Part shown: in pieces, positions 912 to 60,606 of the stretch
Layout: the number at the start of each line of letters is the position of its first letter
Numbering within the stretch: position 1 is the stretch's first letter
NCBI GenBank assembly: GCA_018897555.1
Contig: JAHIKK010000034.1
Location: forward strand, 4,527 to 68,526
Direction: 5' to 3'
DNA: 64,000 bases
Source: Candidatus Omnitrophota bacterium
GTDB taxonomy: Bacteria; Omnitrophota; Gorgyraeia; Gygaellales; Profunditerraquicolaceae
Program-made: the position numbers and the translations under genes
The notes under the pieces: model-generated
Told to the model about the DNA's origin: nothing
Seen by the model: the letters and a program-made list of their open reading frames with translations, nothing else
Databases searched by the model: none

Positions 912-3200
912 ATGGAAGATTCCAAACAAAATAACTTAGAAATTACAGCCGGCCTGCTGCGGAAAGCAGAGCTTCAGCAGAAGGCTATTCTGGATAATAT
1001 TCCGGATATTGCCTGGCTTAAAGATCTCCAAGGCAGATTTATTGCGGTTAATGAACTCTTTGCTAAGGCTTGCGGCCTTAAAGTTGAGGAAATTATCGGT
1101 AAAACTGATCTGGATATTTGGCCAAAAGAGTTGGCTCTAAGTTATCGCGCTAATGACCAGGAAGTAATCGATAGTAAAAAACGTAAATGTATTCAGGAAA
1201 AATTAGTATATCCTAAGGGCTCTGAACAGTGGATGGAAACGATTAAGGCTCCATTTTTTGATGATTACGGCAAAGTAATCGGCACCACCGGGATTTCCAG
1301 AAATATCACTTTGCATAAGAATGAGGCCGAAAGGTTAAAGGAGATTCGCGCGGAGCTTGACCTGAGGGTTAAAGTCAGGACTTCGGAGTTGGCTAGTTTT
1401 AACGAAGCGCTGCGGAAAGAGGTACGCTTCGCTCAAGAGGCGCAAAAAGAAAATGACGAAAAGTTGGAGGTCTTAGTCCAGCAGCGTACAAAATCATTAG
1501 AGCTGGAAATCGCCGCCAGAAAAGAGGCGGAGGAAAAAGCAAATATTTTGTATCAACAGCTGGAGTTTATCCTGGGAGCAACTAAAACCGGCCTGGATAT
1601 TATCGATAAAGATTATAATCTGCGCTATGTCGATCCGGTGTGGGCGTGTAATTATGGGGATTGGAGGGGCAAAAAATGTTTTGAATACTTTATGGGCCGC
1701 AAAAGTTCCTGTCCTGAATGCGCTATTGAGGAGGCCTTTAGCACAAAAAAAATTGTGATTAGTGAAGAAACCTTAACTAGAGAAGGTGACCGGCCGATAC
1801 AGGTTACGACCATACCTTACCAGGATAAAAATGGCGAATGGTTGGTGGTTGAGGTAAATGTGGATATAACTCAAAAAAAGAAGGTTGATGAAGAACTTAA
1901 GCGTTATCGTAACCACTTAGAGCAGTTGGTTGAGGAGCGCACGCAAGATCTTCTACAGGAGACAGCCCGCTGCAGGAATTCTGAATTCGAAAAAAGTAAA
2001 TTAAACCGCGAGTTGCTTAAAACTAATGAAAAATTAAAAAGTGTTTCGCTTATTGACGCGCATACCGGGTTATATAACTATCGTTATTTGCAGGAGGCCA
2101 TTGAGGTTGAATTCCATCAAGCCAGAAGGTATGCTCAAAACCTGGCAATAATCATGCTGGATATCGATTACTTTAAATCCATCAATGATGTCTATGGAAT
2201 TGTTTTTGGAGATTTAGTTTTAAAGCAGCTAGCCAAACAACTTAAGCGCATGCTGAGGCGTTATGATGTTCTCGTCCGTTATAGCGGAGAGGAGTTTATT
2301 ATCATTTCTCCCCGATTAAACCGTGACACCGCTTTTAATCTGGCCCAGAGGCTGCTGGATACATTGAATTTTATCAACTTTGGGAACAAGGAACATAGCG
2401 TTAAATTAAAAATGAGCCTTTCTGTAGTTTCATTTCCCGAGGATAGGGCAAAAAATGGAATGGATTTAGTTAATCTGGCGGATGTATTGTTGAATAAGGT
2501 CAAAGAAAGCGGAGGTAATCGCGCTTATTCTTCTTTGGATCTTAAAAATCCGCCAAGCAAAGGAACGAAGAATATTCTTAAAGTTACAGGGATAAAAACT
2601 TTAAAAAATACGATTACTAAGCTGCATAAGGAGTCCAGACAGGGCTTAGCGGAATCTATCTTTGCCTTTGCTAAAACTTTGGAATTAAAAGATCATTATA
2701 CCGGTGAACATGTTGAAAACACGGTGCATTTTGCCATGGGAGTAGCCAACGAATTAAACTTACCTAAAGAAGATGTGGAATTAATCAAGCAGGCGGCAAT
2801 GCTGCATGACTTAGGTAAGATTGGCATTAGCGAAAGCATTTTACTTAAAAAAGGCAAGCTTAATAAAAAGGAGTTTGAGGAAATTAAAAAGCATCCCCAA
2901 ATCGGTGCCGATATTATCAGGCCGATTAAGTTTCTACATGATTTGATTCCGTTTATTTTCTATCATCATGAACGCTGGGATGGCAAAGGTTATCCTAGCG
3001 GAATAAGGGGTGAGGATATTCCGCTGGGGGCCAGGGTTATTGCGATTGCGGATGTATATCAAGCCCTAATTAGCGACCGGCCATACCATAAGGCATTTAG
3101 CAAGAGCGCGGCTATAGATATAATCAAAAAATCTTCCGGAACTCAATTTGATCCCAGCATTGTCAGGGCTTTTCTTAAGGTTGTGCATAAGGAAAAGTAG
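912..3200 (+). CDS. Multidomain c-di-GMP signalling protein: N-terminal PAS, coiled coils, a second PAS-like region with a 4-Cys motif, a degenerate GGDEF (RYSGEEF) and a C-terminal HD-GYP
   Basis: The translation shows a PAS fold region, RYSGEEF at 2277-2297 (GGDEF with the first G changed to S), and HD and GYP motifs (MLHDLGK, HHERWDGKGYPSG). Confidence 0.8.
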   Translation: MEDSKQNNLEITAGLLRKAELQQKAILDNIPDIAWLKDLQGRFIAVNELFAKACGLKVEEIIGKTDLDIWPKELALSYRANDQEVIDSKKRKCIQEKLVYPKGSEQWMETIKAPFFDDYGKVIGTTGISRNITLHKNEAERLKEIRAELDLRVKVRTSELASFNEALRKEVRFAQEAQKENDEKLEVLVQQRTKSLELEIAARKEAEEKANILYQQLEFILGATKTGLDIIDKDYNLRYVDPVWACNYGDWRGKKCFEYFMGRKSSCPECAIEEAFSTKKIVISEETLTREGDRPIQVTTIPYQDKNGEWLVVEVNVDITQKKKVDEELKRYRNHLEQLVEERTQDLLQETARCRNSEFEKSKLNRELLKTNEKLKSVSLIDAHTGLYNYRYLQEAIEVEFHQARRYAQNLAIIMLDIDYFKSINDVYGIVFGDLVLKQLAKQLKRMLRRYDVLVRYSGEEFIIISPRLNRDTAFNLAQRLLDTLNFINFGNKEHSVKLKMSLSVVSFPEDRAKNGMDLVNLADVLLNKVKESGGNRAYSSLDLKNPPSKGTKNILKVTGIKTLKNTITKLHKESRQGLAESIFAFAKTLELKDHYTGEHVENTVHFAMGVANELNLPKEDVELIKQAAMLHDLGKIGISESILLKKGKLNKKEFEEIKKHPQIGADIIRPIKFLHDLIPFIFYHHERWDGKGYPSGIRGEDIPLGARVIAIADVYQALISDRPYHKAFSKSAAIDIIKKSSGTQFDPSIVRAFLKVVHKEK

Positions 3201-4613: not shown

Positions 4614-5012
4614 ACAGGCAGAATGTGGCTGCCCGCCACGGATTTAGTGGCGGGAGGAAAGTCCGGGCTCCAGAGGATAACGTAACGGGTAATTTCCGTC
4701 CTGTATATGTGATGTATACAGAGGATTTCCGCCAGAAATTGGCGGATCCGCCATAATTTGTGGCGGAAGAGCCACAGAGACGAGTAGTTTCGCAGCTTAG
4801 AAGGTTGCGGGACGAGGTGAAACGCGGCAATCTCTACGTGGAGCAAGGTAGAATAGGAGATGAGCGCTGATCCAGCGCGTTTTCCGTTTTAAGCGGGAAG
4901 CAATCTCGGGTAAACTGCTAAAGTTACCGCGGTAACGCGGGAATTGAGAGGAATAGCCACTAATCGATGCGCGAATTCGCATCAAGACAGAACCCGGCTT
5001 ATTCTGCCTGTT
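4614..5012 (+). ncRNA. rnpB: RNase P RNA (bacterial type A)
   Basis: Contains GGAGGAAAGTCCGGGCTCCA (P4 5' strand) and ACAGAACCCGGCTTA (P4 3' strand). P1 pairing is caggcagaat/attctgcctg. Length is about 400 nt. Confidence 0.9.
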
Positions 5013-5109
5013 TTAAATAATAATAAAGTAAAGTAATGTTCCCCCCTCGCGGGAGCTCGGGGTCAATTTTCCCCAAACGCCGGAGGCTGGGGAAAATTGA
5101 GGAGGAGTT

Positions 5110-8628: not shown

Positions 8629-9729
8629 GTGAAAACATTAATCCGTAAAAGTGTCTTGGCAGTTAATCCCTATATTTCCGGTAAACCCATAGAGGAAACC
8701 AAAAGGCAGCTGGGATTAAAAGAGGTAATTAAGCTGGCTTCTAATGAAAATCCACTGGGCCCGTCACCTAAAGCCTTAAGCGCGATTAAAAGATCCCTAT
8801 CCGGAGTTAACCGTTATCCGGATGCGCAAGGGTATTATTTGAAAAAACGCCTAGCCAAGTTTCTTGGATTGTCCCCTGAAAATTTTGTATTAGGTAATGG
8901 TTCGGATGAATTGATTGATGTTCTGATTAAGACTTTTATGGAGGCGGATGAAAATATCGTTACCTCTGAGGGTACATTCTTGGAATATGAGATTATTGCC
9001 CAGGTTAATGACCGTAAAGTTAAAAAGGCGCCTTTGCGTTATTTTAAATATGATTTAGGGGCAATGTTAAAGTTAGTGGATAAAAAGACCAAATTGATTT
9101 TTATTGCTAATCCCAACAATCCCACCGGAACCTATGTTACTAAATATGAAATTGCGGAATTTATAGACGCGCTGCCGGAAGGAGTGGTAGTAGTTTTTGA
9201 TGAAGCTTATGGTGCATTTATCGATGTAGATGATTATCCGGATTCTTTGAGTTATCTAAGAAAGAAAAAGAAGATTATTATCTTAAGGACATTTTCTAAG
9301 GCCTACGGTTTAGCCGGGTTGCGTTTGGGGTATGCGATTGCCGCGCCGGAATTAGTAACTTATATGGAACGTATCCGGCAGCCGTTTAATGTTAATCTCC
9401 TGGCCCAGGTTGCCGGGTTAGCCGCTTTAGGCGATAATGATTTTCTAAAGAAAACCCGCCGCCTGATTTTAGAAGGCAAAGATTTTATTTACCGGGAATT
9501 GGCAAAAATGGGATTAAGCTACGTGCTTTCAGTGGCGAATTTTATTTTGGTAGATACAGGCAAAGATGGCCGGGAAGTATTCAAATCCATGCTTAAATCC
9601 GGAGTGATTGTTCGGGATATGGAGCAATATGGTTTAAGGAACTTTATCCGCGTAACTATCGGCACGCAAAAAGAAAATAAAAAATTTCTGCGAGTTTTAG
9701 GTAAAGTCTTAACGGAGGACAAGCCATGA
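8629..9729 (+). CDS. hisC: Histidinol-phosphate aminotransferase
   Basis: LASNENPLGPSP motif and a class II aminotransferase fold (FSKAYGLAGLRLGY). GTG start. Confidence 0.85.
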   Translation: MKTLIRKSVLAVNPYISGKPIEETKRQLGLKEVIKLASNENPLGPSPKALSAIKRSLSGVNRYPDAQGYYLKKRLAKFLGLSPENFVLGNGSDELIDVLIKTFMEADENIVTSEGTFLEYEIIAQVNDRKVKKAPLRYFKYDLGAMLKLVDKKTKLIFIANPNNPTGTYVTKYEIAEFIDALPEGVVVVFDEAYGAFIDVDDYPDSLSYLRKKKKIIILRTFSKAYGLAGLRLGYAIAAPELVTYMERIRQPFNVNLLAQVAGLAALGDNDFLKKTRRLILEGKDFIYRELAKMGLSYVLSVANFILVDTGKDGREVFKSMLKSGVIVRDMEQYGLRNFIRVTIGTQKENKKFLRVLGKVLTEDKP

Positions 9730-15916: not shown

Positions 15917-16255
15917 ATGAGAAATTTACTCTATAAAAACCTGTCTTTCCCCAATCAGGGCCGTAAAATAATCGCTAGCTCTGAGATAGCTGATAAAGAA
16001 GGTGTGCATAGCGTGGTGCGTAGGCATTTTACTTATATCATCCGATCGATCAAAGGTAGGGGTGTAATTAAACCGCAGCCGTATCTGTATGTTTTAAAGA
16101 GAAGAAATACTAAAGAGAGGCAAGAGCATTTTTTCTGTAAGATTAAAGGCAGTGTTCAGGCAGTAAATAAGGGAAGCTTATTTCAAATTTCATTTGTGCA
16201 CACTTTAAACATTGATCTTACTGTTTCTGCAAAACTAGGCGAGCAGGTCGGATAG
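15917..16255 (+). CDS. Hypothetical protein (doubtful ORF in an AT-rich spacer)
   Basis: Open reading frame only. No recognisable motifs and lysine/arginine-rich low-complexity composition. Confidence 0.2.
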   Translation: MRNLLYKNLSFPNQGRKIIASSEIADKEGVHSVVRRHFTYIIRSIKGRGVIKPQPYLYVLKRRNTKERQEHFFCKIKGSVQAVNKGSLFQISFVHTLNIDLTVSAKLGEQVG

Positions 16256-16265
16256 ATTAAAAACT

Positions 16266-16322
16266 AGGGACCGTTTCTATTTTTCTTTATTAATAAGGTT
16301 CAGAAAAATAGAAACGGTCCCT
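16266..16322. repeat. Palindromic repeat copy A (AGGGACCGTTTCTATTTTTC ... GAAAAATAGAAACGGTCCCT), abutting the stop codon of the 1080-aa minus-strand gene
   Basis: 20-bp perfect inverted repeat. Nearly identical copies occur at 19630-19697 and 25944-25989. Confidence 0.85.
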
Positions 16323-19300
16323 TTATTCTAGATAAATTTCTATCTTCTTAATTTGGCGTGACCTTATTTCCTGGGCATAGGGTGAGGGTATAACTGAGGA
16401 ATTAAACTCTACGGGTTTATCCGGATCCTGGATAATAATTTTTTTAATGCTGGCCGCATTTTTTCCGAAAGTATTTTTCCTTTTAGGATTATGATAGGTT
16501 ACTTGAATTTGGCTTAAGAAATTAAAAGAATACTCTCCGTTTTTATCAAATAACCAACCCGCAAGACTGGGCTTAAAGGTTAAATTAAGCTCGCCGGTTT
16601 CATTCAATGAAAATGGGCTTAGCCCGGTATTCATCAATAGCCAGATATGTACGAATTCCGCGGTTGAACCGGAGAGTCTGGCTACAAAGCCGTTCCCATG
16701 TAATTTCTTATCGGCAAAAGCGCTGCTAACCAGGAAAGAGGAGTTTTCCAATATGCTGCGTCCGTAGTTTTGCGGATTTTGGAAAGGAATAAGTACGTTT
16801 TTAAATTCGGCATAAAACTCTTCCGTCAAGCCGGCTTTAAGCAGTTCCAGGATATACTTATACTCCATATGTAACCAGATGGATTCATTCTCCAGCCAGC
16901 CCGGGCTAAATATCCTGCATCTGCCGATCTCTTCCGGCATGGCATTAAGCGGAGCGGTTACTTTGTACATCTTTAGTTTTTTATCAAAAAGCGCGCTCTG
17001 CTTAGTTGCTTTGTGCAGAGCTAAGCTTTGCTGGTGATCATCAGTGAGCCTTAAGGCATGTACTTGCCCTTCCAGAAACAGAGGGGCGGGCTTTTGATTA
17101 AATCTTTTCGGTTTTAGGTTATGCTCCCCGAGCAGGTCATATTCTGTAACTTCGTTAATAAAGTATGCGTTGTAGAGGCCCTGGGTTTTGTCAAAAGCCT
17201 TATTTAATCCGCAGTCTACTTTTTTTAGTGCCGCATCTAGAAAACTGATAAGTTTATCCGCCGGAAAATTAGTCAGGGCACCGGAAAAACCCAAAAGAGT
17301 ATTATGCCGGTAATTTTCTTTTAGGGTATTGCTTTTATCCCAATAAGAGAATGCGTCTTCTGAAAATAAGCTGGAGAGTTTTTCGATGAAATTAGCTATT
17401 TCTTCGGCAAGCTCGATATCTTTAATTGGGGAGTTTTCTAAAGCCGCCTTTAGCATTTTAAGCAGGCGCTTTAATTCAAAGGTTTCACAGGTGGATGAAC
17501 CAAAAAGGGCAGGCAGCCCGTTGAGTGAATCAAACCAGTTAGGTTTATTGGCTTCCATTTCAATGCCTACGCCGGAGGCATCTAAAGAGGCCAGTTTATT
17601 TACCGCCAAACATAAAAGTTTAGCCGCCAGCGTAGTGTAATGAATTTGGCCTTCCCCGTGAAGTGTCCTTAAAAGATGCGGATTAATCAGGCGTTTGCGC
17701 AGCATTTCTTTTTTATTGCTGTCTAGTGAAAGGGAGTGTAATTGGCGCGCCTGGCCGTTATGCAGGATATATTTTTCACTCCGCGGCTTGACTATTTCCG
17801 CGTTATCGTAAAATGAGAAAACTTTTCTGGCAAAGAAGAGTTCATTGGCCTTCTCCGGATATAACCCCAGGTAACTATCGATTAAATCCAGATTATAAGC
17901 CCAGTGATCTGTCCAAAAACCTTCTCCATGCTCAGCCTCCTGTATTCTTAAAGCGCAAGGCAGGAGGAGATTCAGAAAATTATCAATTGATCCATTAAGC
18001 ATAATTTTGTTTTCTTCAATAAAAAAGATAAGTTCTCCCGGAGTAAAGGGTTTTTTCAGGAAAGGGCTAAGGGTTTCTAAGCCATTTTTTTTAACTACCG
18101 TTTGCAGCAGTTTTTCTAAATCCAGGTTATCGCGGACCAGAAAGCTTTCCGGCTTTACTACCAGTGGATTAAAACCATCCGCCTGGATTAAATTCATAAA
18201 GAAAATAATATTTTCATCCTGGATCTGTGGGTTAAACCAAAGGTCATTGCGGCGGTTTTGATTTGTGTCCCGGTAGTTACCGTTACCCTGGGAAAAATAC
18301 GTGGGTTGCAGCTGAAAGTTGTTATAGTCTCTTTCTAAGTCACCGTGTTTGCGTGAATAAAGATAGAAGATAATCTTGGTGAATTCCGATGCCTCCCCGG
18401 AAGGTTTAAGGGCGGGGCGGGAAAAAACTTCCGGATAGCCGCCGCGCATAATGTTATCTAAATAAGTCTGTCCGGCGTATAAATTAAACTCCGCGGAACT
18501 GCTTTTAGTTAAGATATCATTTTTTAGTTTTTCAATTAACTCTTTGTTTTGGCGCAGCTTATTCTGAATATAGCCTACTGAACTGATTCTTTTAATCGAG
18601 CGATTTAAGGTCTTGCTGTCTCGCGACTGGCCAATCACTGCGTAAAATGTTTTCTGTTGGTTTGGTTTTAGCTTTAGGTCCATTAAGAGTAAGGCGCTGG
18701 GGGTTTTGCTCTGGGTTATTTGCTCAGCCGGGTATAAAAATTTAGGCTTAGCTAAAAATTCAGCCGGATAAGAGAAATCCGTTACCGCGCCGAAAACAAC
18801 CTGCGGATCAACTATGGGTTTAAGCAATTGGGTTTTTTCGCCTTTGAAATGGAACCCCAGATAAAAATTCCCCGCGTCAATATGCACGACTTCGGGCCGG
18901 TCAGCAGGGTCAACCTCAAGCTTATAAAAGGGGACAGAATTTTTTAGGTTATCAATTTTCATCCAGGCCTCAATGGTCCGCCCGAGTTTTTTTAGGAAAA
19001 AATTGTTTACGCCAAAAGGGACAATTTGCGGTAATCCATCAATAAGCTGCAGGGATTTAGGTTTATTGCCGGTATTTTCTATAGTTACTGTCCGGCTTAA
19101 GCCGGCATAAGTATCATTGGGTATGTTAAAGTATTGAATCCGGGTTTTAATTCCCAGCGTGCGATTCTCTTCCTCCAGGATAAGCTCAGCAGAACTTATG
19201 CGCAGAGAATTGATTATTTGGTACTTTAGATTCCCGTAGCCATTATGGAATGGTTCGTAATAAATAGATTTGGATTTACCGGATTTAATCTTGATAAAAG

Positions 19301-19565
19301 TGCGGAATCCATGGCTAGAAACGAACTGCCAGGATTTGTTAGCCGGGAAGAACTCTAAGATAGCGTGGTCTTTATCCTTGGTGCCGAAACTACAGATGCA
19401 TTGCCCGCGATTAACATAGAAAACCCACATGGGGATCCCGTATTTTCCGGCAATCCCCGGGAAGAAATTAGCAAAAGGCTTGGCGTAATTGTAGTTTTCA
19501 ATCACAAATTCGCCTTGTTTATTTAAATAATACTTGGTTTTTAATGGGTCGGTTTTTGTTTTCAT
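16323..19565 (-). CDS. Large (1080 aa) hypothetical protein, possibly a GH94-superfamily-like glycoside phosphorylase/hydrolase
   Basis: Long uninterrupted ORF with its own promoter-like sequence. The motif GNGNYRDTNQN resembles the catalytic G-x-G-D-W-N-D motif region of GH94/GH149-type phosphorylases. The size matches GH149/GH161 enzymes. Only weak motif-level support. Confidence 0.35.
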   Translation of the reverse strand: MKTKTDPLKTKYYLNKQGEFVIENYNYAKPFANFFPGIAGKYGIPMWVFYVNRGQCICSFGTKDKDHAILEFFPANKSWQFVSSHGFRTFIKIKSGKSKSIYYEPFHNGYGNLKYQIINSLRISSAELILEEENRTLGIKTRIQYFNIPNDTYAGLSRTVTIENTGNKPKSLQLIDGLPQIVPFGVNNFFLKKLGRTIEAWMKIDNLKNSVPFYKLEVDPADRPEVVHIDAGNFYLGFHFKGEKTQLLKPIVDPQVVFGAVTDFSYPAEFLAKPKFLYPAEQITQSKTPSALLLMDLKLKPNQQKTFYAVIGQSRDSKTLNRSIKRISSVGYIQNKLRQNKELIEKLKNDILTKSSSAEFNLYAGQTYLDNIMRGGYPEVFSRPALKPSGEASEFTKIIFYLYSRKHGDLERDYNNFQLQPTYFSQGNGNYRDTNQNRRNDLWFNPQIQDENIIFFMNLIQADGFNPLVVKPESFLVRDNLDLEKLLQTVVKKNGLETLSPFLKKPFTPGELIFFIEENKIMLNGSIDNFLNLLLPCALRIQEAEHGEGFWTDHWAYNLDLIDSYLGLYPEKANELFFARKVFSFYDNAEIVKPRSEKYILHNGQARQLHSLSLDSNKKEMLRKRLINPHLLRTLHGEGQIHYTTLAAKLLCLAVNKLASLDASGVGIEMEANKPNWFDSLNGLPALFGSSTCETFELKRLLKMLKAALENSPIKDIELAEEIANFIEKLSSLFSEDAFSYWDKSNTLKENYRHNTLLGFSGALTNFPADKLISFLDAALKKVDCGLNKAFDKTQGLYNAYFINEVTEYDLLGEHNLKPKRFNQKPAPLFLEGQVHALRLTDDHQQSLALHKATKQSALFDKKLKMYKVTAPLNAMPEEIGRCRIFSPGWLENESIWLHMEYKYILELLKAGLTEEFYAEFKNVLIPFQNPQNYGRSILENSSFLVSSAFADKKLHGNGFVARLSGSTAEFVHIWLLMNTGLSPFSLNETGELNLTFKPSLAGWLFDKNGEYSFNFLSQIQVTYHNPKRKNTFGKNAASIKKIIIQDPDKPVEFNSSVIPSPYAQEIRSRQIKKIEIYLE

Positions 19566-19587
19566 TTGTATTAACTTAATTATTAGT

Positions 19588-19615
19588 ATTTTACATATTT
19601 TTCCATATTTGTCAA
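19588..19615 (-). promoter_or_regulatory. Sigma-70-like promoter for the 1080-aa gene (TTGACA-16 nt-TAAAAT on the minus strand)
   Basis: Minus-strand -35 at 19610-19615 and -10 at 19588-19593, about 25 nt upstream of the start codon. Confidence 0.35.
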
Positions 19616-19629
19616 CTTATAACGGATTT

Positions 19630-19697
19630 AAATCCAGGGACCGTTTCTATTTTTCCTGGTTAAATTATAAAGAAAAATAGAAACGGTCCCTGGATTT
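19630..19697. repeat. Palindromic repeat copy B (extended ~26-bp stem) in the divergent promoter region between the 1080-aa gene and gatC
   Basis: AAATCCAGGGACCGTTTCTATTTTT ... AAAAATAGAAACGGTCCCTGGATTT. Confidence 0.85.
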
Positions 19698-19760
19698 TAG
19701 TTTAGCCCTGTTGACTTTTAAGAATAAAGATGTTAAAATAAATAAAATTTTGGAGGGAAA

Positions 19761-20048
19761 ATGTCGATAGATAAAGAAACAATTAAGCATGTTGCGCATT
19801 TAGCGCGTATCGAATTGCAGCCTAATGAGTTAGATAAGCTGTCCGGAGAGCTGGATGAGATATTAGGCTTTATTGATAAGCTTAAGTATTTGAATCTGGA
19901 GCAAGTTAAGCCTGCCAGCCATATTTTACCCATAAATAATGTATTGCGGGAGGATGAGCCGCATGTTTCTTTGACCTCGGAAAAGGCTTTAGAAAATGCC
20001 CCGAGTAAACAGGGAAACTTCTTTAGTGTCCCCAAAATAATAGAATAA
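19761..20048 (+). CDS. gatC: Asp/Glu-tRNA(Asn/Gln) amidotransferase subunit C
   Basis: 95 aa with [12 protein letters not shown] motif, immediately upstream of gatA and gatB. Confidence 0.85.
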
Positions 20049-20050
20049 TC

Positions 20051-21487
20051 ATGGAATTAAATCAACTTACTGCTCACGAATTATTGGAAAAGCTTAACCA
20101 CCAAGAGACGACTCCTGAAGCGATTTTGGATTCGCTCCAAGCGCGTATACGAAAGGTTGAGCCTCAGGTTAAGGCTTATGTCCGAGGGGAACAGGAGGCA
20201 GGAAATCTTACTCTGAATTCCTTTTCTTTAGGCCCGCTTAAAGGATTACCGGTTACGATTAAAGATAATATCTGTACCGAAGGGCTGCCTACTGAATGTT
20301 GTTCGAAAATCCTCCGGGGTTTTCGCCCGCCGTATGACGCCACAGTAATTAGTAAATTAAAAAAAAGCGGTGCCGCAATTTTCCCATTAAAAGCGAACAT
20401 GGATGAGTTTGCTTTTGGTTCATCTTGCGAAAATTCCTATTTTGGGCCAACGCATAATCCCTGGAGTTTAGATTGTGTTCCCGGAGGTTCCTCCGGAGGA
20501 AGCGCCGCTGCCGTAGCCAGTGATGAAGCAATTTGGGCTTTAGGAAGCGATACCGGAGGCTCAATACGCCAGCCGGCATCTTTTTGCGGGGTAGTAGGAT
20601 TAAAACCGACATATGGCCGGGTTTCGCGTTTTGGATTAATTGCTTTTGCTTCCAGCCTGGATCAGATTGGCCCGATTACCAAGGATGTCCAGGATGCGGC
20701 AATTTTAACCGGTTTGATCTGCGGTTATGACCCTCGTGATTCAACTTCCGTAAATCAGGATGTTCCGGATTACACAAAAAGCCTCTCTGGTGATATCAGG
20801 GGGTTAAAGATCGGTATACCCAAAGAATATTTTGTCGCGGGTCTGGATTCGGAAATCAAAACGATTATTCAGGAGGCGGTAAACAAACTCCAAAACTTAG
20901 GCGCAGTTATTCATCAGGTATCCTTGCCGCATACAGAGTACGCTGTGCCGGTTTACTACATTATCGCGACCGCCGAAGCCAGCTCAAATTTGGCCAGGTT
21001 TGATGGAGTGCAGTATGGATACCGGGCACAATCAGATAATCTGATGCAAATGTATAAGTTGACTCGCGCGCAAGGTTTTGGCCAGGAGGCCAAACGCAGA
21101 ATCATCTTAGGAACCTTTGTTCTATCGCATGGATATTATGACGCGTATTATTTACGCGCCCTAAAGGTGCGCACGCTGATTAAGCAGGATTTTGATCAAG
21201 TTTTTGGGGATTTTGATTGTATCGTTGCTCCCACCTCCCCCACCAGCGCCTTTAAAATTGGTGAAAAGGCACTTGACCCTTTGAAGATGTATCTTTCCGA
21301 TATCTATACGATATCCGTAAATTTAGCAGGAATTCCGGCGATATCTATTCCTTGCGGCTTTACCAAAAAAGGATTGCCCGTAGGCCTGCAGATTATGGCC
21401 AAACCCTTTAATGAAGAGATGCTTTTTAGGGTAGCGCATACTTTTGAACAGAATACAGATTGGCATAAAATTAAACCCCGGCTATGA
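20051..21487 (+). CDS. gatA: Asp/Glu-tRNA amidotransferase subunit A
   Basis: Amidase signature [12 protein letters not shown]...[12 protein letters not shown]. Confidence 0.9.
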
Positions 21488-22917
21488 AATATCAAACCGT
21501 TATCGGCTTAGAAGTTCATCTGCAGCTAAATACCAAAACCAAGGCTTTTTGTGGCTGCTCTACGGATTTTGGGAAAGCCCCTAATTCCAACGTCTGCCCG
21601 GTATGCTTGGGATTTCCCGGAGCGCTTCCGGTTTATAATCACCAGGCGTTGAATTCCGCCATTAAGTTAGCCCTGGCTTTTGGCTGTCAGATTCAAGAGC
21701 ATACTAAATTTGACCGGAAGAATTATTTCTACCCGGATTTACCAAAAAATTACCAGATTTCACAATTTGATCTGCCCTTATCCCGGAACGGATATTTGGA
21801 TATCTATAGTCAGGATAAACCTAAGCGCATCGGGATTACCCGGGTACACTTAGAAGAAGATGCCGGTAAGCTCATCCATGAAACAGGGGTAAGCCTGGTG
21901 GATTTTAATCGCACCGGGATCCCCCTGCTTGAAATCGTCAGTGAGCCGGATTTATTCAGCCCGCAAGAAGCTTTCGATTACCTGACGAGTTTAAAAAGTA
22001 TTATCGAATATCTGGATGTGTCAGATTGCGATATGGAAAAAGGTTCTTTGCGCTGCGATGCTAATATTTCTTTACGGCTAGAAGGGGCTAAAGAACTGGG
22101 TGTGAAAACCGAACTAAAGAATATGAATTCTTTTAAAGGGGTAAAAGATGCCTTAACCTTTGAGGTAGAGCGCCAAACCCTGCTTTTGGAAGCAAACCAG
22201 AAGTTGGTTCAGGAAACCCGGCTTTGGGATGTGGAAAAGGGGGTTACTGTAGCCATGCGTACCAAGGAGGGGGCAAAAGATTACCGGTATTTTCCGGATC
22301 CGGATTTAACTGTCTTTATTATTGATGCGTCTATAATTTCTCAGATTAAGGCGCAGTTACCGGAACTGCCCCCGGAAAAAATGCGCCGTTTCGTTAAAGA
22401 ATACGGATTAACTGAATACGATGCCAAGATTTTAGTGAGCTCTAAAAATGATGCGGAGTTTTCCGAAAGCTGTATCCGGGATTACCCGGGAAAAGACAAA
22501 AAGGAATTGGTCAATTGGTTAATTGGCCCGTTATTGTCTGAAGCTAACTTTAGGAAAATAAAATTACATGAGTTAAATCTTAATAAGAATGAATTAATCA
22601 GTTTAATTGGTTTTGTGGAAAGGCAGGATATCTCTCATCTTTCGGCCAAGAGCGTATTAAGCCAATTGCTGGATACCGGGAAATCCGCGCGGGATTTGAT
22701 TGAGGAAGGTAATCTTAAGCAGATATCTAACGCGGAAGCGCTCCTGGAGGTAATGGAAACGGTTATTCAGGAAAATGCGAAATCAGTGAGTGATTTTAAG
22801 GCGGGAAAGACTAACGCGTTGATGTATTTGGTCGGACAGGTAATGAAGAAAAGTTCCGGCAAGGCTAACCCTAAGGTAGTCGGAGAATTAATAAGACGGA
22901 GGCTTACGGATGCGTAA
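21484..22917 (+). CDS. gatB: Asp/Glu-tRNA amidotransferase subunit B
   Basis: [15 protein letters not shown] start and a GatB/YqeY C-terminal domain. Confidence 0.9.
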
Positions 22918-24184
22918 AAAAATATTTTTTGTTTCTTTGTTAATCGCGCTGGTATTTATCAGCGTCAGGCTGGGTTTTTCCGATAATAAAAGGAAGAATA
23001 ATGATGCGTTATATAAACAGGTTGAATTATTCTCCAATACCCTGGCAATTATTCAAAAAGAATATGTTGATGACACAAAAACTAAAGATTTAATCTATGG
23101 GGCATTAAAAGGCATGTTGGTCTCTTTAGACCCACATAGCCAATTCATGGATCCGGAGACCTACGAGGAATTAAAAGTAGATACCCAGGGTAAATTCGGC
23201 GGCCTGGGTATTGAGATCACCATAAAAGATGGTTTGTTAACCGTAATTACGCCGATTGAAGATACTCCTGCCTGGAAAGCCGGGATAAAAGCTAATGACC
23301 ATATTGTAAAAATTAATGATGCTCTTACCCGTGAGATCTCCCTTACGGATGCGGTTAAAAAAATGCGCGGGAAGCCCGGTGAAGCCGTTAACCTTACCAT
23401 CTTAAGGGATTCTGAAAAAAAACTATTAGATTTTAAAATCACCAGAGGTATGATTAAGATTACAGATATAAAATATGCGCGTATCCTGGAAGAGGGGATT
23501 GGTTATATCCGGCTAAGTGAATTCCGTGAAAATACCTTCCCGGAATTAAATAAGGCCTTGGGTATCCTTACCAAACAGGGAATGCAGGCATTGATTATTG
23601 ATTTGCGCAATAATCCCGGCGGGCTTCTGGATGTTGCGGTTAAAGTGACCGGAAAGTTTCTGGGGCCGAATAAACTGGTTGCCTATACCAAAAGCAGGCA
23701 GAAGGCTCAAGAGCTGGAATTTTTTTCCGAGGCTAAAAATACAAGCTTAGAGTTACCGCTGGTGATTTTGATTAACGAAGGCTCGGCTTCCGGAAGCGAG
23801 ATTGTTGCCGGAGCCCTGCAGGATTATAAGCGGGCAATCATTATCGGGAAAAAGTCTTTTGGTAAAGGCTCCGTACAGACAGTTATTCCCCTGGCTGATG
23901 GTTCAGCCTTACGTTTAACTACGAGTCATTATTTTACTCCCTCCGGAAAAATAATCCAGGACAAGGGGATTACTCCGGATATCCTGGTAGAAGAAAAGAA
24001 AGTTCCGGATAACAAAATTGATGCGGTGGCTGATAAAAAGGCTGACGAGATATTTGATGAAATCCAGAATGGCCAGCAAACAAATAAACCGGCCAAAGAT
24101 GCTTTTAATTATAAGGCTGATCCGCAGCTGATGCGCGCTGTAGACGCTTTAAAAGTAATCCGGATTTATAAACAGGTCAAGTAA
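22910..24184 (+). CDS. ctpA: Carboxy-terminal processing protease (S41 family) with PDZ domain
   Basis: N-terminal signal/TM, a PDZ region, and LIIDLRNNPGGLLD and GSASGSEI motifs. Confidence 0.85.
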   Translation: MRKKIFFVSLLIALVFISVRLGFSDNKRKNNDALYKQVELFSNTLAIIQKEYVDDTKTKDLIYGALKGMLVSLDPHSQFMDPETYEELKVDTQGKFGGLGIEITIKDGLLTVITPIEDTPAWKAGIKANDHIVKINDALTREISLTDAVKKMRGKPGEAVNLTILRDSEKKLLDFKITRGMIKITDIKYARILEEGIGYIRLSEFRENTFPELNKALGILTKQGMQALIIDLRNNPGGLLDVAVKVTGKFLGPNKLVAYTKSRQKAQELEFFSEAKNTSLELPLVILINEGSASGSEIVAGALQDYKRAIIIGKKSFGKGSVQTVIPLADGSALRLTTSHYFTPSGKIIQDKGITPDILVEEKKVPDNKIDAVADKKADEIFDEIQNGQQTNKPAKDAFNYKADPQLMRAVDALKVIRIYKQVK

Positions 24185-24212
24185 TTTAAGCGCCAATTAA
24201 TATTATCAGCGA

Positions 24213-24983
24213 ATGAAAAACAAAACCTTTAAAGTTGCCTGGATTATATTACTTTTGTTTGTATTTATCGCGCTCATTTTGAGCCCGCTTCATAAAAAAG
24301 CCGCGCTTAGGAAAGCACCAAAGCGGCCCGGCCGGATTGCTATTGTCATTGATGATTGGGGATATAGCTTGAACAATCTTTGGATTATCGAGCAAATAAA
24401 ACAACCTTTAACCTGCGCGATTTTACCCGGTTTAAAAAATTCAAATCCGGTTATGCAAAAATTAAATAGTTTAGGTTTTGAAATAATTTTACATTTACCC
24501 ATGGAGCCAAAAGAAAAGTATCGTTTAGAGAACAATACGATTACCCTGGGGATGAATGCCGGAGAAATCGAAAATATTTTTGAGAAAGATTTATCCAGCA
24601 TTGCTTTGGCCAAGGGTATATCCAATCATATGGGGTCGCGGATCACTGAAGATAAAAAAGCCAGCGCCATGGTCATGGCCGAAGCAAAAAAACGTAAGCT
24701 ATACTTTTTCGATAGTTTTGTAACGAACAAATCCGTTTGCCCGGCTTTGGCTAAACAAATAAAGATCCGGTTTGCTAAAAGGGATGTTTTTTTGGATAAT
24801 CAGAATGATTTTGAATATATCAAAAGACAGCTGATAAAATTAAAGCATTTAGCCGGAAGGCAAGGCAGGGCCATTGGTATCGGCCATGACCGTCAAAACA
24901 CCCTGCTGGTATTAAAGGAGATGCTTCCGTTACTGGAAAGGGAAGGTTATAAATTTGTTTTTCTTTCGCAGGTGGTAGAATGA
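24213..24983 (+). CDS. Divergent polysaccharide deacetylase family protein (YibQ-like)
   Basis: N-terminal TM followed by IAIVIDDWGY motif. Confidence 0.7.
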   Translation: MKNKTFKVAWIILLLFVFIALILSPLHKKAALRKAPKRPGRIAIVIDDWGYSLNNLWIIEQIKQPLTCAILPGLKNSNPVMQKLNSLGFEIILHLPMEPKEKYRLENNTITLGMNAGEIENIFEKDLSSIALAKGISNHMGSRITEDKKASAMVMAEAKKRKLYFFDSFVTNKSVCPALAKQIKIRFAKRDVFLDNQNDFEYIKRQLIKLKHLAGRQGRAIGIGHDRQNTLLVLKEMLPLLEREGYKFVFLSQVVE

Positions 24984-25945
24984 TTGTTTTAGGAATTGAG
25001 AGCTCTTGCGATGAAACCGGGGTGGCTGTGGTTAAGAATGAAAGAAAAATTTTAGCGAATGTCATTGCCTCTAGCCTAAAATTACATAGCCGCCATGGCG
25101 GGGTGGTTCCGGAGATTGCCTCGCGTATGCAGTTGGAAAGTATCGCCGGCATATTTACTGAGGCAATGCAGATCGCTAAAATTAAGCCTGCGCAGATTGA
25201 CCTGGTTGCGGTTACCACTCATCCGGGTTTACCCGGGTCACTGATAACGGGGATCGCATTTGCCAAAGCACTGGCTTTAAGCTTAGGCAAGCCGATACTG
25301 GGGGTTAATCATATTCATAGCCATATTTATGCCAATCTTCTTTACCCTGAGAAGATTAAATTGCCGGCTGTAGCTTTAGTAGTTTCCGGTGGACATACCT
25401 CTCTTTTTTATCTAAAGGATTTTTCTAAAATCCAGGTATTGGGGCAAACCCGCGATGACGCCTGCGGTGAGGCTTTTGATAAGGTAGCCAAGATTATGGG
25501 GTTGGGTTATCCCGGAGGGCCGTTAATTGAAAAAATAGCTCGAGGTGGAAATGAGCATAAAATTAAGTTTGCTTGTTGGGGAAATACTGAGCTGGATTTT
25601 AGTTTCAGTGGTATAAAAACCGCGGTTTTATATTATTTAAAGGATAAAAAACCCGGCAGTAAATTGCTCAAAGACCTGGCTGCTTCTTTTCAAGAGAGTG
25701 CCGTCAATGTTTTAGTAAAAAAATCCCTGCTTGCCTGTAAACGAAAAAAGGTTAAGCATCTTTTAATCGGCGGCGGGGTGGCGGCCAACGGAGTTTTGCG
25801 TCAAAAATTAATGGCAAGCGCTAAAGCTGCAGGAATTAACTGTTTTTTTCCGAATATTGATCTGTGCATGGATAATGCGGCGATGGTTGCCGGCCTGGGA
25901 GGTTATCTTTATAAGCGCGGCGCAAGGAACGATTTTAAAAACTAG
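24980..25945 (+). CDS. tsaD: tRNA N6-adenosine threonylcarbamoyltransferase
   Basis: MIVLGIESSCDETGVAVV start and HSHIYA metal site. Confidence 0.9.
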   Translation: MIVLGIESSCDETGVAVVKNERKILANVIASSLKLHSRHGGVVPEIASRMQLESIAGIFTEAMQIAKIKPAQIDLVAVTTHPGLPGSLITGIAFAKALALSLGKPILGVNHIHSHIYANLLYPEKIKLPAVALVVSGGHTSLFYLKDFSKIQVLGQTRDDACGEAFDKVAKIMGLGYPGGPLIEKIARGGNEHKIKFACWGNTELDFSFSGIKTAVLYYLKDKKPGSKLLKDLAASFQESAVNVLVKKSLLACKRKKVKHLLIGGGVAANGVLRQKLMASAKAAGINCFFPNIDLCMDNAAMVAGLGGYLYKRGARNDFKN

Positions 25946-25989
25946 GGACCGTTTCTATTTTTCTTTTTAGAAAAATAGAAACGGTCCCT
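25944..25989. repeat. Palindromic repeat copy C, starting at the tsaD stop codon
   Basis: TAGGGACCGTTTCTATTTTTCT-tttt-AGAAAAATAGAAACGGTCCCT. Confidence 0.85.
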
Positions 25990-26009
25990 GATTCAAAAAA
26001 GGAGAATGT

Positions 26010-34855: not shown

Positions 34856-34900
34856 TATTCATAATTTACACTTTAAGCCGAATAAAGTCAATAAAAACTA

Positions 34901-34943
34901 GGGGACGGTTACAGTAGGGGAGGTTTAAACCTCCCCTACTGTT
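34901..34943. repeat. Hairpin element sharing the AAAAACTAGGGGACGGTT flank motif with the palindromic repeat family (13-bp stem ACAGTAGGGGAGG/CCTCCCCTACTGT)
   Basis: Flank motif identical to copies A and C. The palindrome body is different. Confidence 0.6.
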
Positions 34944-52045: not shown

Positions 52046-54810
52046 TGGCGCAAGAGCTTAGTAAGCAGTATAACCCCCAAGATACCGAAAGTAAGTGGTA
52101 TAAAGTTTGGGAGCAAAATAATCTTTTTTCCGCTAAACCCTCCCCGGATAAATTACCCTATTGCATCGTTATTCCGCCGCCTAATGTCACCGGAATCCTG
52201 CACATGGGGCATGCCTTAAATAACACTATTCAAGATATCTTAATCCGTTACAAAAAAATGCGGGGTTTTGCGGCCCTGTGGATGCCGGGAGTGGATCATG
52301 CCGGAATCGCCACGCAAAATGTTGTCGAAAAAGCCCTGGCTAAAGAGGGGCTCAAGCGGCAAGATCTCGGCCGGGAAAAATTCCTGGAGAAAGTCTGGGA
52401 ATGGAAACAACTCTACGGCTCAACCATCATTAACCAGCTTAAAAAACTCGGCTGCGCCTGCGATTGGGAGCGGGCGCGTTTTACCATGGATCAAGAGTAT
52501 TCTTTAGCCGTCACCGAAGTTTTTGTCAGGCTTTATGAAAAAAAACTTATTTACCAAGGCCACTATATTATCAACTGGTGCCCGCGCTGCCAGACGGCGT
52601 TAAGTGATGAAGAGGCAGCGCGCGCGGAATTACAGGGAAGCCTTTATTATTTAAAGTATCCGTTTAAAATACTTGGGGACAGTCCCCAAAAAACGGGGAC
52701 AGTCCCCAAGTATACTGACGAGTTTATTATTGTTGCCACAACCCGGCCAGAAACTATGTTTGGAGATACTGCCGTAGCCGTAAATCCAAAAGACAAGCGC
52801 TATAAAAAATATATCGGAAAAACATTGATCCTTCCGCTAATTAAACGGGAAATAAAAATTATTGCCGATTCCTCCGTTGATATGGAATTTGGAACGGGGG
52901 CCGTCAAGGTCACTCCCGCGCATGACCCCAATGATTATGTTTTGGGCAAAAAACATAATTTGGAATTCATCAAGATAATGCATCCTGACGGCTCGATGAA
53001 TGAAATTGCAGAGAAATACTCCGGGCTGGACCGCTTCAAAGCAAGAGAAGCGGTATTGGAAGATTTAAAACAATTGGGGTTACTTGAAAAGATCATTGCC
53101 CACACGTTTTCTGCCGGCCACTGTTACCGTTGCCAAACCATTGTCGAGCCCTATTTATCCCAACAATGGTTTATAAAAATGAAACCGTTGGCCAAGCCGG
53201 CCATTAAAGCAGTAAAAAAAGGAGAGATTAAATTTTACCCCGATCGTTGGACTAAGGTTTATTTAAACTGGATGGATAATATCCAGGACTGGTGTATCTC
53301 CCGGCAGATCTGGTGGGGACACCGGATGCCGGTTTATTACTGTAAAAATTGCCAGGAGAAAAATCCAAAAGCTGGGATCATCGTATCCAGGATTAAGCCT
53401 TCTAAATGCCCGAAATGCGCATCCGAGAGCCTAACGCAAGAAGAAGATGTCCTGGACACCTGGTTTTCCAGCTGGCTTTGGCCGTTTGCCACCTTCTATT
53501 GGCCTAAAGAAAATGCCGACTTAAAATATTTTTATCCTACTGCAACCCTGGTTACTGCTCCGGAGATTATCTTTTTTTGGGTAGCGCGCATGATTATGGC
53601 GGGTTTTGAATTTAAACAACAAATCCCTTTTAAAAATGTTTATATCCACGGCACGGTGCGCGACAGCCAGGGAAAAAAGATGTCCAAATCCTTAGGTAAT
53701 GCGCTTGACCCCCTGGAGGTCATCGCGGAGTATGGAACAGATGCTTTACGTTTCAGCCTTATCTCGATAACTTCCCAGGGCCAGGATGTATATTTGTCCA
53801 AAGACAGATTTGAACAAGGCAGGAACTTTGCCAATAAAATCTGGAACGCCTCACGCTTTATTCTCATTAACCTTAAGCCTGAAGATGTAAATGTAGATTT
53901 ATGCGTTTTCTTTAAACGCGAACAACTGGATATTGTTAACCGCTGGATCTTAAGCCGTTTTTATACAACTCTGGAGAAAGTAGGCAAAGAATTAGATAAT
54001 TTTAAATTCAATGAAGCTGCCAGTAGCCTGTATGCATTTTTCTGGCATGAATTCTGTGATTGGTACCTGGAATTAATTAAACCTCAAATCGGAGAAAAGC
54101 AAACCCAAATAGTGATGTATAAAGTTTTAGAAAAATACCTCAGGCTGATTCATCCGTTTATGCCTTTTATCTCCGAGGAGATTTGGCAGCGCCTTCCCGG
54201 CGCCAAAGATTCAACCCCTTCGACGCACCCCGGGCTAAAGCCCGGGGTTTGCTCAGGGTTGATGGTGAGCAAAGTCGAACCATCAATTATGCAGCAAAAC
54301 TGGCCGCATTTACAGAGCGAGCTGATCAATAAGCAAGATGAATTACAGATGGAGTTGGCTTTTGAGGTGATTAATGTAATCAGAAATATGCGCGCAGAGT
54401 TGGAGGTTAACCCTGCCAGCCGTATTGACATCCAAATAAGCGCCATGAGTAAACTTACTCAAAAATCTCTGGAGCAGCTTTTAAGCTACATAAAAAATTT
54501 GGCTAAAGTTAACGCTTTAACACTGACCGAGAAATATATCGCCCAAAATAACCAATACGCGGTTGTTTTTAAAGATCTGCATATTGTCATGCCGCTTGAG
54601 GGAGTCGCCGATGCCGCCCAGCAGATTAATAAAACTAATCTAAAAATTGATAAATTAAAATCCGAGATTAAAAATAAAGAGGCAATGCTGGCAAATAAAA
54701 ATTTTACCCTGCGTGCCCCCGAAGAAATTGTAGAAGCAGAAAAAAATAAATTAATCGATATGCGTGAGCAGGTAAAAAAACTGGAGGCAATCAAAAATGG
54801 CTTACGCTAA
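52045..54810 (+). CDS. valS: Valine--tRNA ligase
   Basis: HMGH and KMSKS motifs, a CP1 editing domain and a C-terminal coiled coil. Contains two in-frame GC-rich palindromic insertions (see findings). Confidence 0.95.
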   Translation: MAQELSKQYNPQDTESKWYKVWEQNNLFSAKPSPDKLPYCIVIPPPNVTGILHMGHALNNTIQDILIRYKKMRGFAALWMPGVDHAGIATQNVVEKALAKEGLKRQDLGREKFLEKVWEWKQLYGSTIINQLKKLGCACDWERARFTMDQEYSLAVTEVFVRLYEKKLIYQGHYIINWCPRCQTALSDEEAARAELQGSLYYLKYPFKILGDSPQKTGTVPKYTDEFIIVATTRPETMFGDTAVAVNPKDKRYKKYIGKTLILPLIKREIKIIADSSVDMEFGTGAVKVTPAHDPNDYVLGKKHNLEFIKIMHPDGSMNEIAEKYSGLDRFKAREAVLEDLKQLGLLEKIIAHTFSAGHCYRCQTIVEPYLSQQWFIKMKPLAKPAIKAVKKGEIKFYPDRWTKVYLNWMDNIQDWCISRQIWWGHRMPVYYCKNCQEKNPKAGIIVSRIKPSKCPKCASESLTQEEDVLDTWFSSWLWPFATFYWPKENADLKYFYPTATLVTAPEIIFFWVARMIMAGFEFKQQIPFKNVYIHGTVRDSQGKKMSKSLGNALDPLEVIAEYGTDALRFSLISITSQGQDVYLSKDRFEQGRNFANKIWNASRFILINLKPEDVNVDLCVFFKREQLDIVNRWILSRFYTTLEKVGKELDNFKFNEAASSLYAFFWHEFCDWYLELIKPQIGEKQTQIVMYKVLEKYLRLIHPFMPFISEEIWQRLPGAKDSTPSTHPGLKPGVCSGLMVSKVEPSIMQQNWPHLQSELINKQDELQMELAFEVINVIRNMRAELEVNPASRIDIQISAMSKLTQKSLEQLLSYIKNLAKVNALTLTEKYIAQNNQYAVVFKDLHIVMPLEGVADAAQQINKTNLKIDKLKSEIKNKEAMLANKNFTLRAPEEIVEAEKNKLIDMREQVKKLEAIKNGLR

Positions 54811-60508: not shown

Positions 60509-60545
60509 ACAGCTGTAAGCCATAAGTTGTAAGCTGTAAAATAAA

Positions 60546-60606
60546 GGGGACGGTTCTATTTTTTCGAGTTTAATTCCAGATAAATAGAACCGTCCCCGTG
60601 TTTTTT
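60546..60606 (+). terminator. Rho-independent terminator after groEL. Its stem (GGGGACGGTTCTATTT/AAATAGAACCGTCCCC) is a variant of the palindromic repeat family
   Basis: 16-bp stem followed by GTGTTTTTT. Confidence 0.75.

Follow-up and report, generated by a model that had tools for sequence, protein, structure and literature searches.

The window analysed here is a 64,000-nucleotide stretch of a Candidatus Omnitrophota bacterium (assembly GCA_018897555.1, contig JAHIKK010000034.1, positions 4,527 to 68,526 of the forward strand), and the hairpins that recur in it are very probably REPINs of a repetitive extragenic palindromic (REP)/REPIN-RAYT system that extends across many uncultured Omnitrophota, RAYT being the REP-associated tyrosine transposase. 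REP/REPIN-RAYT systems are defined by a conserved repeat that occurs as inverted doublets around a variable spacer, by singlets that are remnants, and by a Y1 transposase gene flanked by repeats (PMC3116915; PMC5581495). The systems used for comparison are the REPINs of Pseudomonas, Enterobacteria and Neisseria (Bertels & Rainey 2011, PMC3116915; Bertels et al. 2017, PMC5581495) and the transposase TnpArep (4ER8). An earlier note on this DNA, made from the letters alone, had proposed a mobile palindromic family resembling REPs or miniature inverted-repeat transposable elements (MITEs). The proposal is supported by arms that are common to many Omnitrophota genomes, by a RAYT-type gene that lies between such arms, and by a window copy that is present in some relatives and absent from others.

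Hairpins of the window and their family in Omnitrophota

Six exact matches to the 20-mer AGGGACCGTTTCTATTTTTC are present in the window, three on the plus strand (16266-16285, 19636-19655 and 25944-25963) and three on the minus strand (16303-16322, 19672-19691 and 25970-25989). They pair as three perfect hairpins, copy A (16266-16322), copy B (19630-19697) and copy C (25944-25989), with the coordinates and sequences that the earlier note had given. The chance expectation for the 20-mer in the window is 0.02 matches, and none of 100 dinucleotide-preserving shuffles gave six. The perfect stems measure 21 bp in A and C and 26 bp in B, and the arms are separated by 15 nt in A, 16 nt in B and 4 nt in C. 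The predicted RNA folds of A, B and C, at -32.8, -44.0 and -34.8 kcal/mol, have z-scores of -7.3 to -11 against shuffles; the fold energies of all REPINs evaluated range from -31 to -44 kcal/mol. A search of the hairpins against Rfam gave no match at the gathering score, only weak matches to generic hairpins of the miRNA-precursor type that fall far under threshold.

The family has two subfamilies in the window, 1a and 1b. The sequence variant that had been noticed after groEL is confirmed and belongs to 1b, and the flank motif said to recur near 34901 beside a different palindrome corresponds to half of a 1b motif (Table 1). The GTAG-type palindrome that this half motif abuts has a wider association with the family. 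It is nested in the spacers of 1a REPINs in L029, L119 and L110 and adjoins REPINs in L025 and L036, L-numbers being the labels of the related contigs, loci and metagenome stretches used in the comparison.

A scan for the exact 19-mer of the arm through a collection with one genome per species (596 Gb) matched 40 stretches. Among these, 36 come from ∼14 different Omnitrophota metagenome-assembled genomes (MAGs), a few of which bear mislabelled titles, and each of the two best-sampled MAGs has about a dozen exact loci. The other four, two from Paraburkholderia, one from Cohnella and one from a "Woesearchaeota", can be set beside the ∼4 chance matches expected for a 19-mer in 596 Gb; the "Woesearchaeota" match contains several partial arms and may be genuine. 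The exact 19-mer is also found in 83 further metagenome stretches. Carriage by phages is unsupported since a collection of viral contigs contained no match to the 19-mer.

The pooled half-sites define the anatomy of the element. An inverted partner is present for 95 of the 158 distinct half-sites, while 63 are partnerless, many of which are the ends of RAYT genes or have long nested insertions. The spacers between inverted arms cluster at 15-17 nt and 4-6 nt and differ in sequence and length, whereas the arms themselves are conserved. The half-site extends outward by 7 nt as RAAWMAW, with positions -6 and -5 being A in ∼90% of cases, giving a REP unit of ∼26 nt, RAAWMAW-GGGACCGTTTCTATTTTTC, in which GGGAC forms the foot of the arm. 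The longer "spacers" hold nested palindromes of other families, such as GTAG...GTTTAAAC...CTAC and the GTAGTTGCCCGATTTATCGGGCAACTAC and GGGGACACTTTCC hairpins. Most copies are found 0-50 nt past a stop codon.

Tandem expansions and stuttered partial arms occur at the edges of some elements, as in the L047 orthologue of the copy B site, L120 (545-658), L091 (397-475) and L102 (∼8860-8926). The tail of the copy B orthologue, for example, has TTTTTAGTCTTTAG repeats, one spacer has GTCCCCGCGAGAAAAAT repeats, and partial arms of the forms AACAATGAGACCGTTTCC and GAAATAATGGGACCGTTT stand in tandem. Such edges may mark the point of cleavage or re-joining.

A transposase gene between the repeat arms

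Clustering of the open reading frames (ORFs) around the 40 genome loci detected no recurrent neighbour gene, and a Pfam search with nine ORFs beside or between hairpins detected pilins, a YhcG nuclease, ETF and an ORF6N protein and no transposase. The transposase surfaced from the larger metagenome sample, through sequence that recurs beside partnerless arms, where the two recurrent contexts proved to belong to opposite ends of a single gene. In L058 this gene is a 225-aa ORF (1036-1713, minus strand), MPKIRRIIPVNAAMHLINRGNN...MDNHSHLIV...GHLWQGRFKS...YIELNPVRA, that lies within inverted arms at 1016-1042 and 1780-1806, with its stop codon inside the arm (CCC GAA AAA TAG). The arms are equally placed on both sides of the gene in a second L058 copy (L058b), L091 and L053, and in L101, L118 and L068, where one end of the gene was available or matched, an arm is present at that end. 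In total, seven RAYT gene copies on six related contigs abut arms of the 1a type.

The L058 protein matches the Pfam family Y1_Tnp (PF01797) with E = 6e-16 and 59 bits against a cut-off of 23. Its top NCBIfam match is REP_Tyr_transpos, the REP-associated tyrosine transposase model, at 60.5 bits, compared with 20 bits for the IS200 model. A single RAYT sequence searched against solved structures gave no match; a profile of nine sequences ranked E. coli TnpArep (4ER8) first with E = 3.5e-7 and ISDra2 TnpA, of the IS200/IS605 group, second at 0.0027. The alignment of the profile to 4ER8 covers the HUH motif and the Y-x-x-x-N-P helix, and in the RAYT alignment every sequence has the HUH histidines and two candidate tyrosines. 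The family comprises 1833 homologues at E <= 1e-20. The best matches listed all fit PF01797, and those with an organism name are from Omnitrophota; many are on contigs of ∼1 kb, as expected because the genes are bounded by repeats that break assemblies. The repeats appear to have this effect since some contigs end at hairpins and many RAYT genes occupy such short contigs. Two contigs that encode a GatC identical to that of the window, L042 and L043, both stop 64 nt past the stop codon of the 1080-aa gene discussed below, that is, at copy A.

The arms vary together with the transposase. RAYTs that are 60-63% identical to the L058 type, in L135 and L136, are flanked by 1b arms (GGGGACGGTTCT...). 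These arms, GGGGACGGTTCTAWTTTTTC and GAAAAATAGAACCGTCCCC, represent the second subfamily of the window, and the stop codon is again within the arm. A second, different RAYT in L135 is flanked by GGGGTCAGAATT... arms (GGGGTCAGAATTATTTTT and GAAAAATAATTCTGACCCC). More distant RAYTs are flanked by GGGGACGGTTCTC arms in L097 (GGGGACGGTTCTCTCTAAC) and by TTGGGGACGCTCCCCAA in L020, an arm resembling the doublet within valS of the window. Every RAYT lineage examined thus has its own arm variant, 1a, 1b, GGGGTCAGAATT, GGGGACGGTTCTC or TTGGGGACGCTCCCCAA, which is what cognate recognition predicts.

The short elements look like internally deleted RAYT units because their spacers keep two marks of those units. 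The motif TTAGATT, located just inside the upstream arm of RAYT units, is kept with at most one mismatch in 7 of 26 REPIN spacers, as compared with a mean of 1.4 and a maximum of 5 spacers in 1000 shuffling trials, and many spacers end in CGA like the 3' end of the RAYT.

In the favoured explanation, the REPINs are inverted REP doublets with a short, poorly conserved spacer and are probably the non-autonomous derivatives of a unit that carries the RAYT in its centre. The RAYT, a Y1/HUH tyrosine transposase related to those of IS200, would recognise the hairpin of the doublet in single-stranded DNA at replication forks, by analogy with the E. coli RAYT and with IS200/IS605. It would cut beside the foot of the hairpin and re-insert the element elsewhere without target-site duplication. 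By the same analogy, either the activity of the transposase or gene conversion among copies would keep the arms identical while the spacers drift. The stable stem, together with the A-rich and T-rich flanks, would give each element a shape like that of a two-way terminator.

A decayed version of the RAYT unit is found in L018, which contains a remnant of the RAYT C-terminus. Two hairpins bracket this locus, and they enclose different cargo in two related species: in L018 (3373-4765) a YhcG/DUF1016 nuclease gene and the C-terminal remnant, and in L024 (5183-5885) an unrelated stretch of ∼680 nt. In L018, the direct repeat CGGTAATGTAAACCGTTA is found outside the two hairpins. In L058 (1-6480), the ORFs near the RAYTs include glycine-rich proteins, one of which has by eye an RHS-like motif, YGARYMDPQLGRF...NPINYTDPTGH; the RAYT units of this contig may lie within a polymorphic-toxin cassette region.

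Genomic sites, turnover and in-frame copies

The coordinates of the elements in the window are collected in Table 1. A 112-aa ORF has its stop codon at 16253-16255 and the 1080-aa gene, on the minus strand, at 16323-16325, and copy A sits between the two. Copy B precedes both of its neighbours, the divergent 1080-aa gene and gatC, and has their promoter-like hexamers on either side. The left arm of copy C overlaps the TAG stop codon of tsaD (25943-25945), and an mgtC-like ORF begins 21 nt downstream.

Table 1. Candidate REPINs of the window, related palindromes and the bracketed gene.
Feature	Position	Strand	Details
REPIN copy A, subfamily 1a	16258..16330		arms 16266-16286 / 16302-16322; 15-nt spacer; A-rich left flank AAAAACTA
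1080-aa gene, named cellobiose phosphorylase by NCBI in relatives	16323..19565	-	context, not part of an element
Inserted segment with REPIN copy B	19618..19704		arms 19630-19655 / 19672-19697; 16-nt spacer CTGGTTAAATTATAAA; 3' tail TAGTTTAGCCC
REPIN copy C, subfamily 1a	25936..25996		arms 25944-25964 / 25969-25989; 4-nt loop
Truncated REP singlet, subfamily 1b	34893..34910	+	AAAAACTAGGGGACGGTT; adjoins the GTAG-type palindrome
Different, GTAG-type perfect palindrome	34911..34942		ACAGTAGGGGAGGTTT / AAACCTCCCCTACTGT; abuts the 1b singlet
Doublet of a related palindrome family	52669..52713	+	ATACTTGGGGACAGTCCCC / GGGGACAGTCCCCAAGTAT; in frame within valS (52045-54810)
REPIN of subfamily 1b after groEL	60538..60605		arms GGGGACGGTTCTATTT (60546-60561) / AAATAGAACCGTCCCC (60582-60597), then GTGTTTTTT

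Both intergenic regions flanking the 1080-aa gene were compared across the syntenic loci of relatives that differ in the identity of its protein (L047, 95%; L049, 84%; L050, 79%; L046 and L028, 76%). The B site, between the 1080-aa gene and gatC, is filled in the window and in L047. The L047 element has a decayed left arm, a spacer with another palindrome nested in it and a tail that has grown into tandem repeats. The site is empty in L050 and in L046/L028; in L046/L028, the two promoter-like -35 boxes nearly touch (GTCAACTCCAGATGTTGAC). In L049, a hairpin of the other subfamily is present at almost the same place. Comparison of filled and empty sites revealed no target-site duplication at the junctions of copy B. 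The groEL terminator of the L046 species (L010, 6721-6803) matches, at 95% identity, a stretch of 83 nt in the window (19630-19712) that comprises the hairpin, spacer and 3' tail of copy B. Copy B is a lineage-specific insertion in a place where a terminator makes no sense, as the earlier note had argued from its position between divergent promoters, and we infer that it is a selfish one. Among contigs encoding the identical GatC, the spacing from the 1080-aa gene to gatC is constant and no strain-level difference in presence or absence was seen.

The gene-end positions always hold some hairpin, and which hairpin they hold turns over quickly. The A site is occupied by 1a in the window, by 1b in L047/L048, by 1a with a different spacer plus an extra partial arm in L046, and by unrelated GC-rich hairpins followed by T runs in L049 and L050. 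The site after groEL holds 1b in the window and 1a in both L010 and L008, the L008 element having a further hairpin nested in it. Their position, their shape and the presence of other hairpins at the same sites in relatives make it probable that copies A and C and the one after groEL are retained because they terminate transcripts or shield the 3' ends of mRNAs; the shape of a terminator fits copy A on both strands and also fits the groEL copy.

In L028, the orthologue of copy C differs by a single mismatch in the arms and by the orientation of its loop. Six nucleotides at the tip of the hairpin (window 25965-25968 region) are reverse-complemented, TTTTTA as against TAAAAA, with the arms otherwise unchanged. 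To judge from this hexamer, the element would have flipped whole, or been re-inserted in the other orientation, between the window and L028. The idea that copy C is better conserved than its flanks was dropped, the local alignment being 94% identical overall and the test therefore without power.

The 1080-aa gene that copies A and B bracket had been called an orphan, and its acquisition by way of the repeats had been proposed. The label does not survive. Although it has no match in Pfam, the protein has more than 6800 homologues at E <= 1e-10, the best of which NCBI names "cellobiose phosphorylase [Candidatus Omnitrophota]", and its gene is a standard one in Omnitrophota. The notion that the two copies precisely flank the gene is half right: copy A abuts its stop codon, but copy B starts 65 nt upstream of its start codon. 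The order of genes is lepA, lepB, CDP-alcohol phosphatidyltransferase (pgsA), plsY, the 112-aa ORF, the 1080-aa gene (minus strand), gatCAB and a tail-specific protease gene (ctpA), beyond which the window contains a polysaccharide deacetylase gene, tsaD and the mgtC-like gene. The identical GatC, with the same neighbours, is also encoded on JAKLQW010000079.1 (GCA_022013145.1), from a Candidatus Omnitrophota MAG. The neighbours and orientation of the 1080-aa gene are kept in the relatives of 95, 84, 79 and 76% identity wherever the contig reaches, and the gene is present without a B-site hairpin in L046 and L050 and without a family member at the A site in L049 and L050. On the evidence of this synteny, which holds in relatives with and without the repeats, the gene is native and not imported.

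The 112-aa ORF upstream of copy A (15917-16255, plus strand) has no Pfam match. It occupies the same position in relatives, with 112 aa in L047-L051 and 88 aa in L046, and is probably a real small conserved gene.

Several copies lie in frame within protein-coding genes. The arm contains no stop codon in any frame of one strand and has a stop in only one frame of the other. In PriA of L023, a family member encodes ...KIN-GTVSIFPQSSSRKIETVP-SFVQ..., of which the orthologue in L017 retains half. PurL of L006 contains two elements, near one of which the protein is longer than structure 3VIU by ∼43 residues, and RsmE of L034 contains an in-frame copy of subfamily 1b encoding GDGSIF...SRKIEPSP. The peptides have common forms, GTVSIF...RKIETVP in PriA and PurL and GDGSIF...KIEPSP in RsmE. 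In the ValRS of the window, the doublet of Table 1 encodes LGDSPQKTGTVPK, opposite a gap of ∼13-15 residues in the Thermus thermophilus enzyme (1GAX).

A second perfect palindrome in valS, ACCCCGGGCT aa AGCCCGGGGT (54227-54248), lies in the stretch ...STPSTHPGLKPGVCSGLMVSKVEPS... and may be another in-frame element. This stretch falls between two blocks that align to T. thermophilus ValRS, and the window protein has ∼27 more residues there. Yet another repeat is found elsewhere in the window: a hairpin, TCAATTTTCCCCA...TGGGGAAAATTGA (5063-5100), lies shortly past the RNase P RNA (4614-5015), and the 83-nt stretch that contains it (5022-5104) recurs at 88% identity in another Omnitrophota MAG (L026 3501-3583).

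Alternative explanations and relation to known systems

In the Omnitrophota elements and the known REP/REPIN-RAYT systems alike, conserved inverted repeats enclose a less conserved spacer and form a hairpin, singlets are likely decayed doublets, most copies lie outside genes, inverted repeats flank a Y1/HUH gene, and several repeat families, each with its own transposase, are present in one lineage. The Omnitrophota elements differ in being shorter (∼45-70 nt), in having perfect stems of 19-26 bp, in a RAYT whose stop codon lies in the arm, in copies that are translated inside essential genes, and in a new host phylum.

Further differences weigh against the assignment. The 5' GTAG/GTGG of the studied REPs is absent, the foot being GGGAC after an A-rich flank. 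Classical REPs are small imperfect palindromes in themselves, but the 19-nt arm is not self-complementary when taken singly, and it takes a doublet to form a hairpin. The copy number is modest and apparently lower than in the systems compared, with six half-sites in 64 kb. The NCBIfam score of 60.5 for the RAYT falls under the curated cut-off of 80, and no RAYT gene is present within the window, whose copies may be relics. RAYTs are usually described as single-copy per genome and vertically inherited, yet L058 carries two copies that are 96% identical and 2983 nt apart. One clean filled/empty pair was analysed, in which the inserted segment is longer than the REPIN, and transposition was not observed directly. 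With regard to the terminator role, the T run of copy C is confined to the non-transcribed strand, and no U-tract would follow the hairpin in the transcript.

The most durable of the rival explanations, though a highly improbable one, is that the arms are DNA uptake sequences or sites for a host DNA- or RNA-binding protein, with selection for recognition preserving their identity and the link to a transposase being secondary. In Neisseria and the Pasteurellaceae, uptake sequences are paired in inverted orientation as terminators, and the identical words inverted just past Omnitrophota genes resemble these pairs; the many partnerless arms and the conservation of arms but not spacers between species also fit such an account. 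However, uptake sequences are very dense, with about one per kb and also within genes, a density far above that of the window, and they are much shorter than the arms described here. Moreover, the arm variants co-vary with RAYT lineages, which is unexpected for a single host receptor, and many partnerless arms are explained as RAYT gene ends or by nested insertions.

There is a very remote chance that the elements are MITEs of a DDE-type insertion sequence or sites like the attC sites of integrons. They are short inverted-repeat elements with variable centres, and the exchangeable cargo between hairpins in L018 and L024, with the direct repeat outside the L018 pair, recalls such elements. In contrast, the copy B junctions lack the duplication expected of a MITE, and the only recurrent neighbour is the Y1 transposase, with no DDE transposase or integron integrase recurring near the copies. 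The copies are dispersed singly by housekeeping genes and not in arrays, and their stems are perfect, while attC sites need extrahelical bases in imperfect stems.

It is extremely unlikely that the hairpins are ordinary intrinsic terminators that evolved independently and are alike through similar composition. Copies A, C and the groEL copy do lie 0-50 nt past stop codons, like most copies elsewhere, with A-rich and T-rich flanks, and the unrelated hairpins with T runs at the A site of relatives suggest that this position needs a terminator. Identity of 19-20 nt across the three window copies, ∼14 species and 83 metagenome stretches, however, cannot be convergence, and stems of 21-26 bp far exceed what termination requires; the earlier note had likewise judged the identity between copies to be greater than independent terminators need. 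Nor does termination account for copy B, which has divergent promoter-like sites on both sides and is lacking from relatives, for the in-frame copies in priA, purL and rsmE, or for arms that flank a transposase gene. A terminator role may well be a secondary one, and it does not explain the family. Finally, the probability is negligible that copies A and B are the ends of a horizontally acquired cassette in which recombination between repeats captured the 1080-aa gene: the gene between them is indeed the one long minus-strand gene among a series of genes on the plus strand, and hairpins do bracket different cargo at the decayed RAYT locus, but the many homologues, the conserved neighbours and the relatives lacking one or both hairpins described above argue against capture.

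Under the REPIN-RAYT interpretation, two other groups of elements invite comparison. The IS200/IS605 elements are alike in the PF01797 superfamily of their transposase, in hairpin-forming ends, in the lack of a visible target-site duplication, and in short non-autonomous derivatives that apparently arise by internal deletion. The Omnitrophota system differs in that its transposase profile is nearer to TnpArep than to ISDra2 TnpA, no tnpB partner was seen, and the ends are exact inverted copies rather than distinct left and right hairpins. The Rickettsia palindromic elements (RPEs), which Ogata and colleagues are said to have described in 2000, are reportedly palindromes of 100-150 bp that lie in frame in conserved genes, and we know of no transposase for them. 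The resemblance is functional only: in both cases an in-frame palindrome lengthens the protein by a short peptide and leaves the gene intact. The sequences are unrelated, and the Omnitrophota copies lie for the most part outside genes and have a candidate transposase.

To our knowledge, REPIN-RAYT systems have been studied almost solely in Proteobacteria, and a literature search for Omnitrophota together with palindromic repeats or RAYTs returned nothing relevant. A clear set of co-varying arm and transposase pairs is now available in an uncultured phylum of very small cells. The stop codon within the repeat, the unusual foot motif and the copies translated in essential genes are points of interest for the field, and the repeats could serve in practice as markers for binning or strain typing in Omnitrophota. 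For the window itself, a conspicuous feature is explained and the false lead of an imported minus-strand gene is removed. A broader reading is tentative and on balance doubtful, namely that Omnitrophota carry an old, phylum-wide REPIN-RAYT set that is different in kind from the proteobacterial ones and is used twice by the host, as two-way terminators and as a source of peptide insertions in essential enzymes (ValRS, PriA, PurL and RsmE). The features that would set it apart are the GGGAC foot in place of GTAG, the non-palindromic arms and the transposase gene that ends within its own repeat. If true, this reading would link the world of REPs and RAYTs with the so far transposase-less in-frame elements of Rickettsia.

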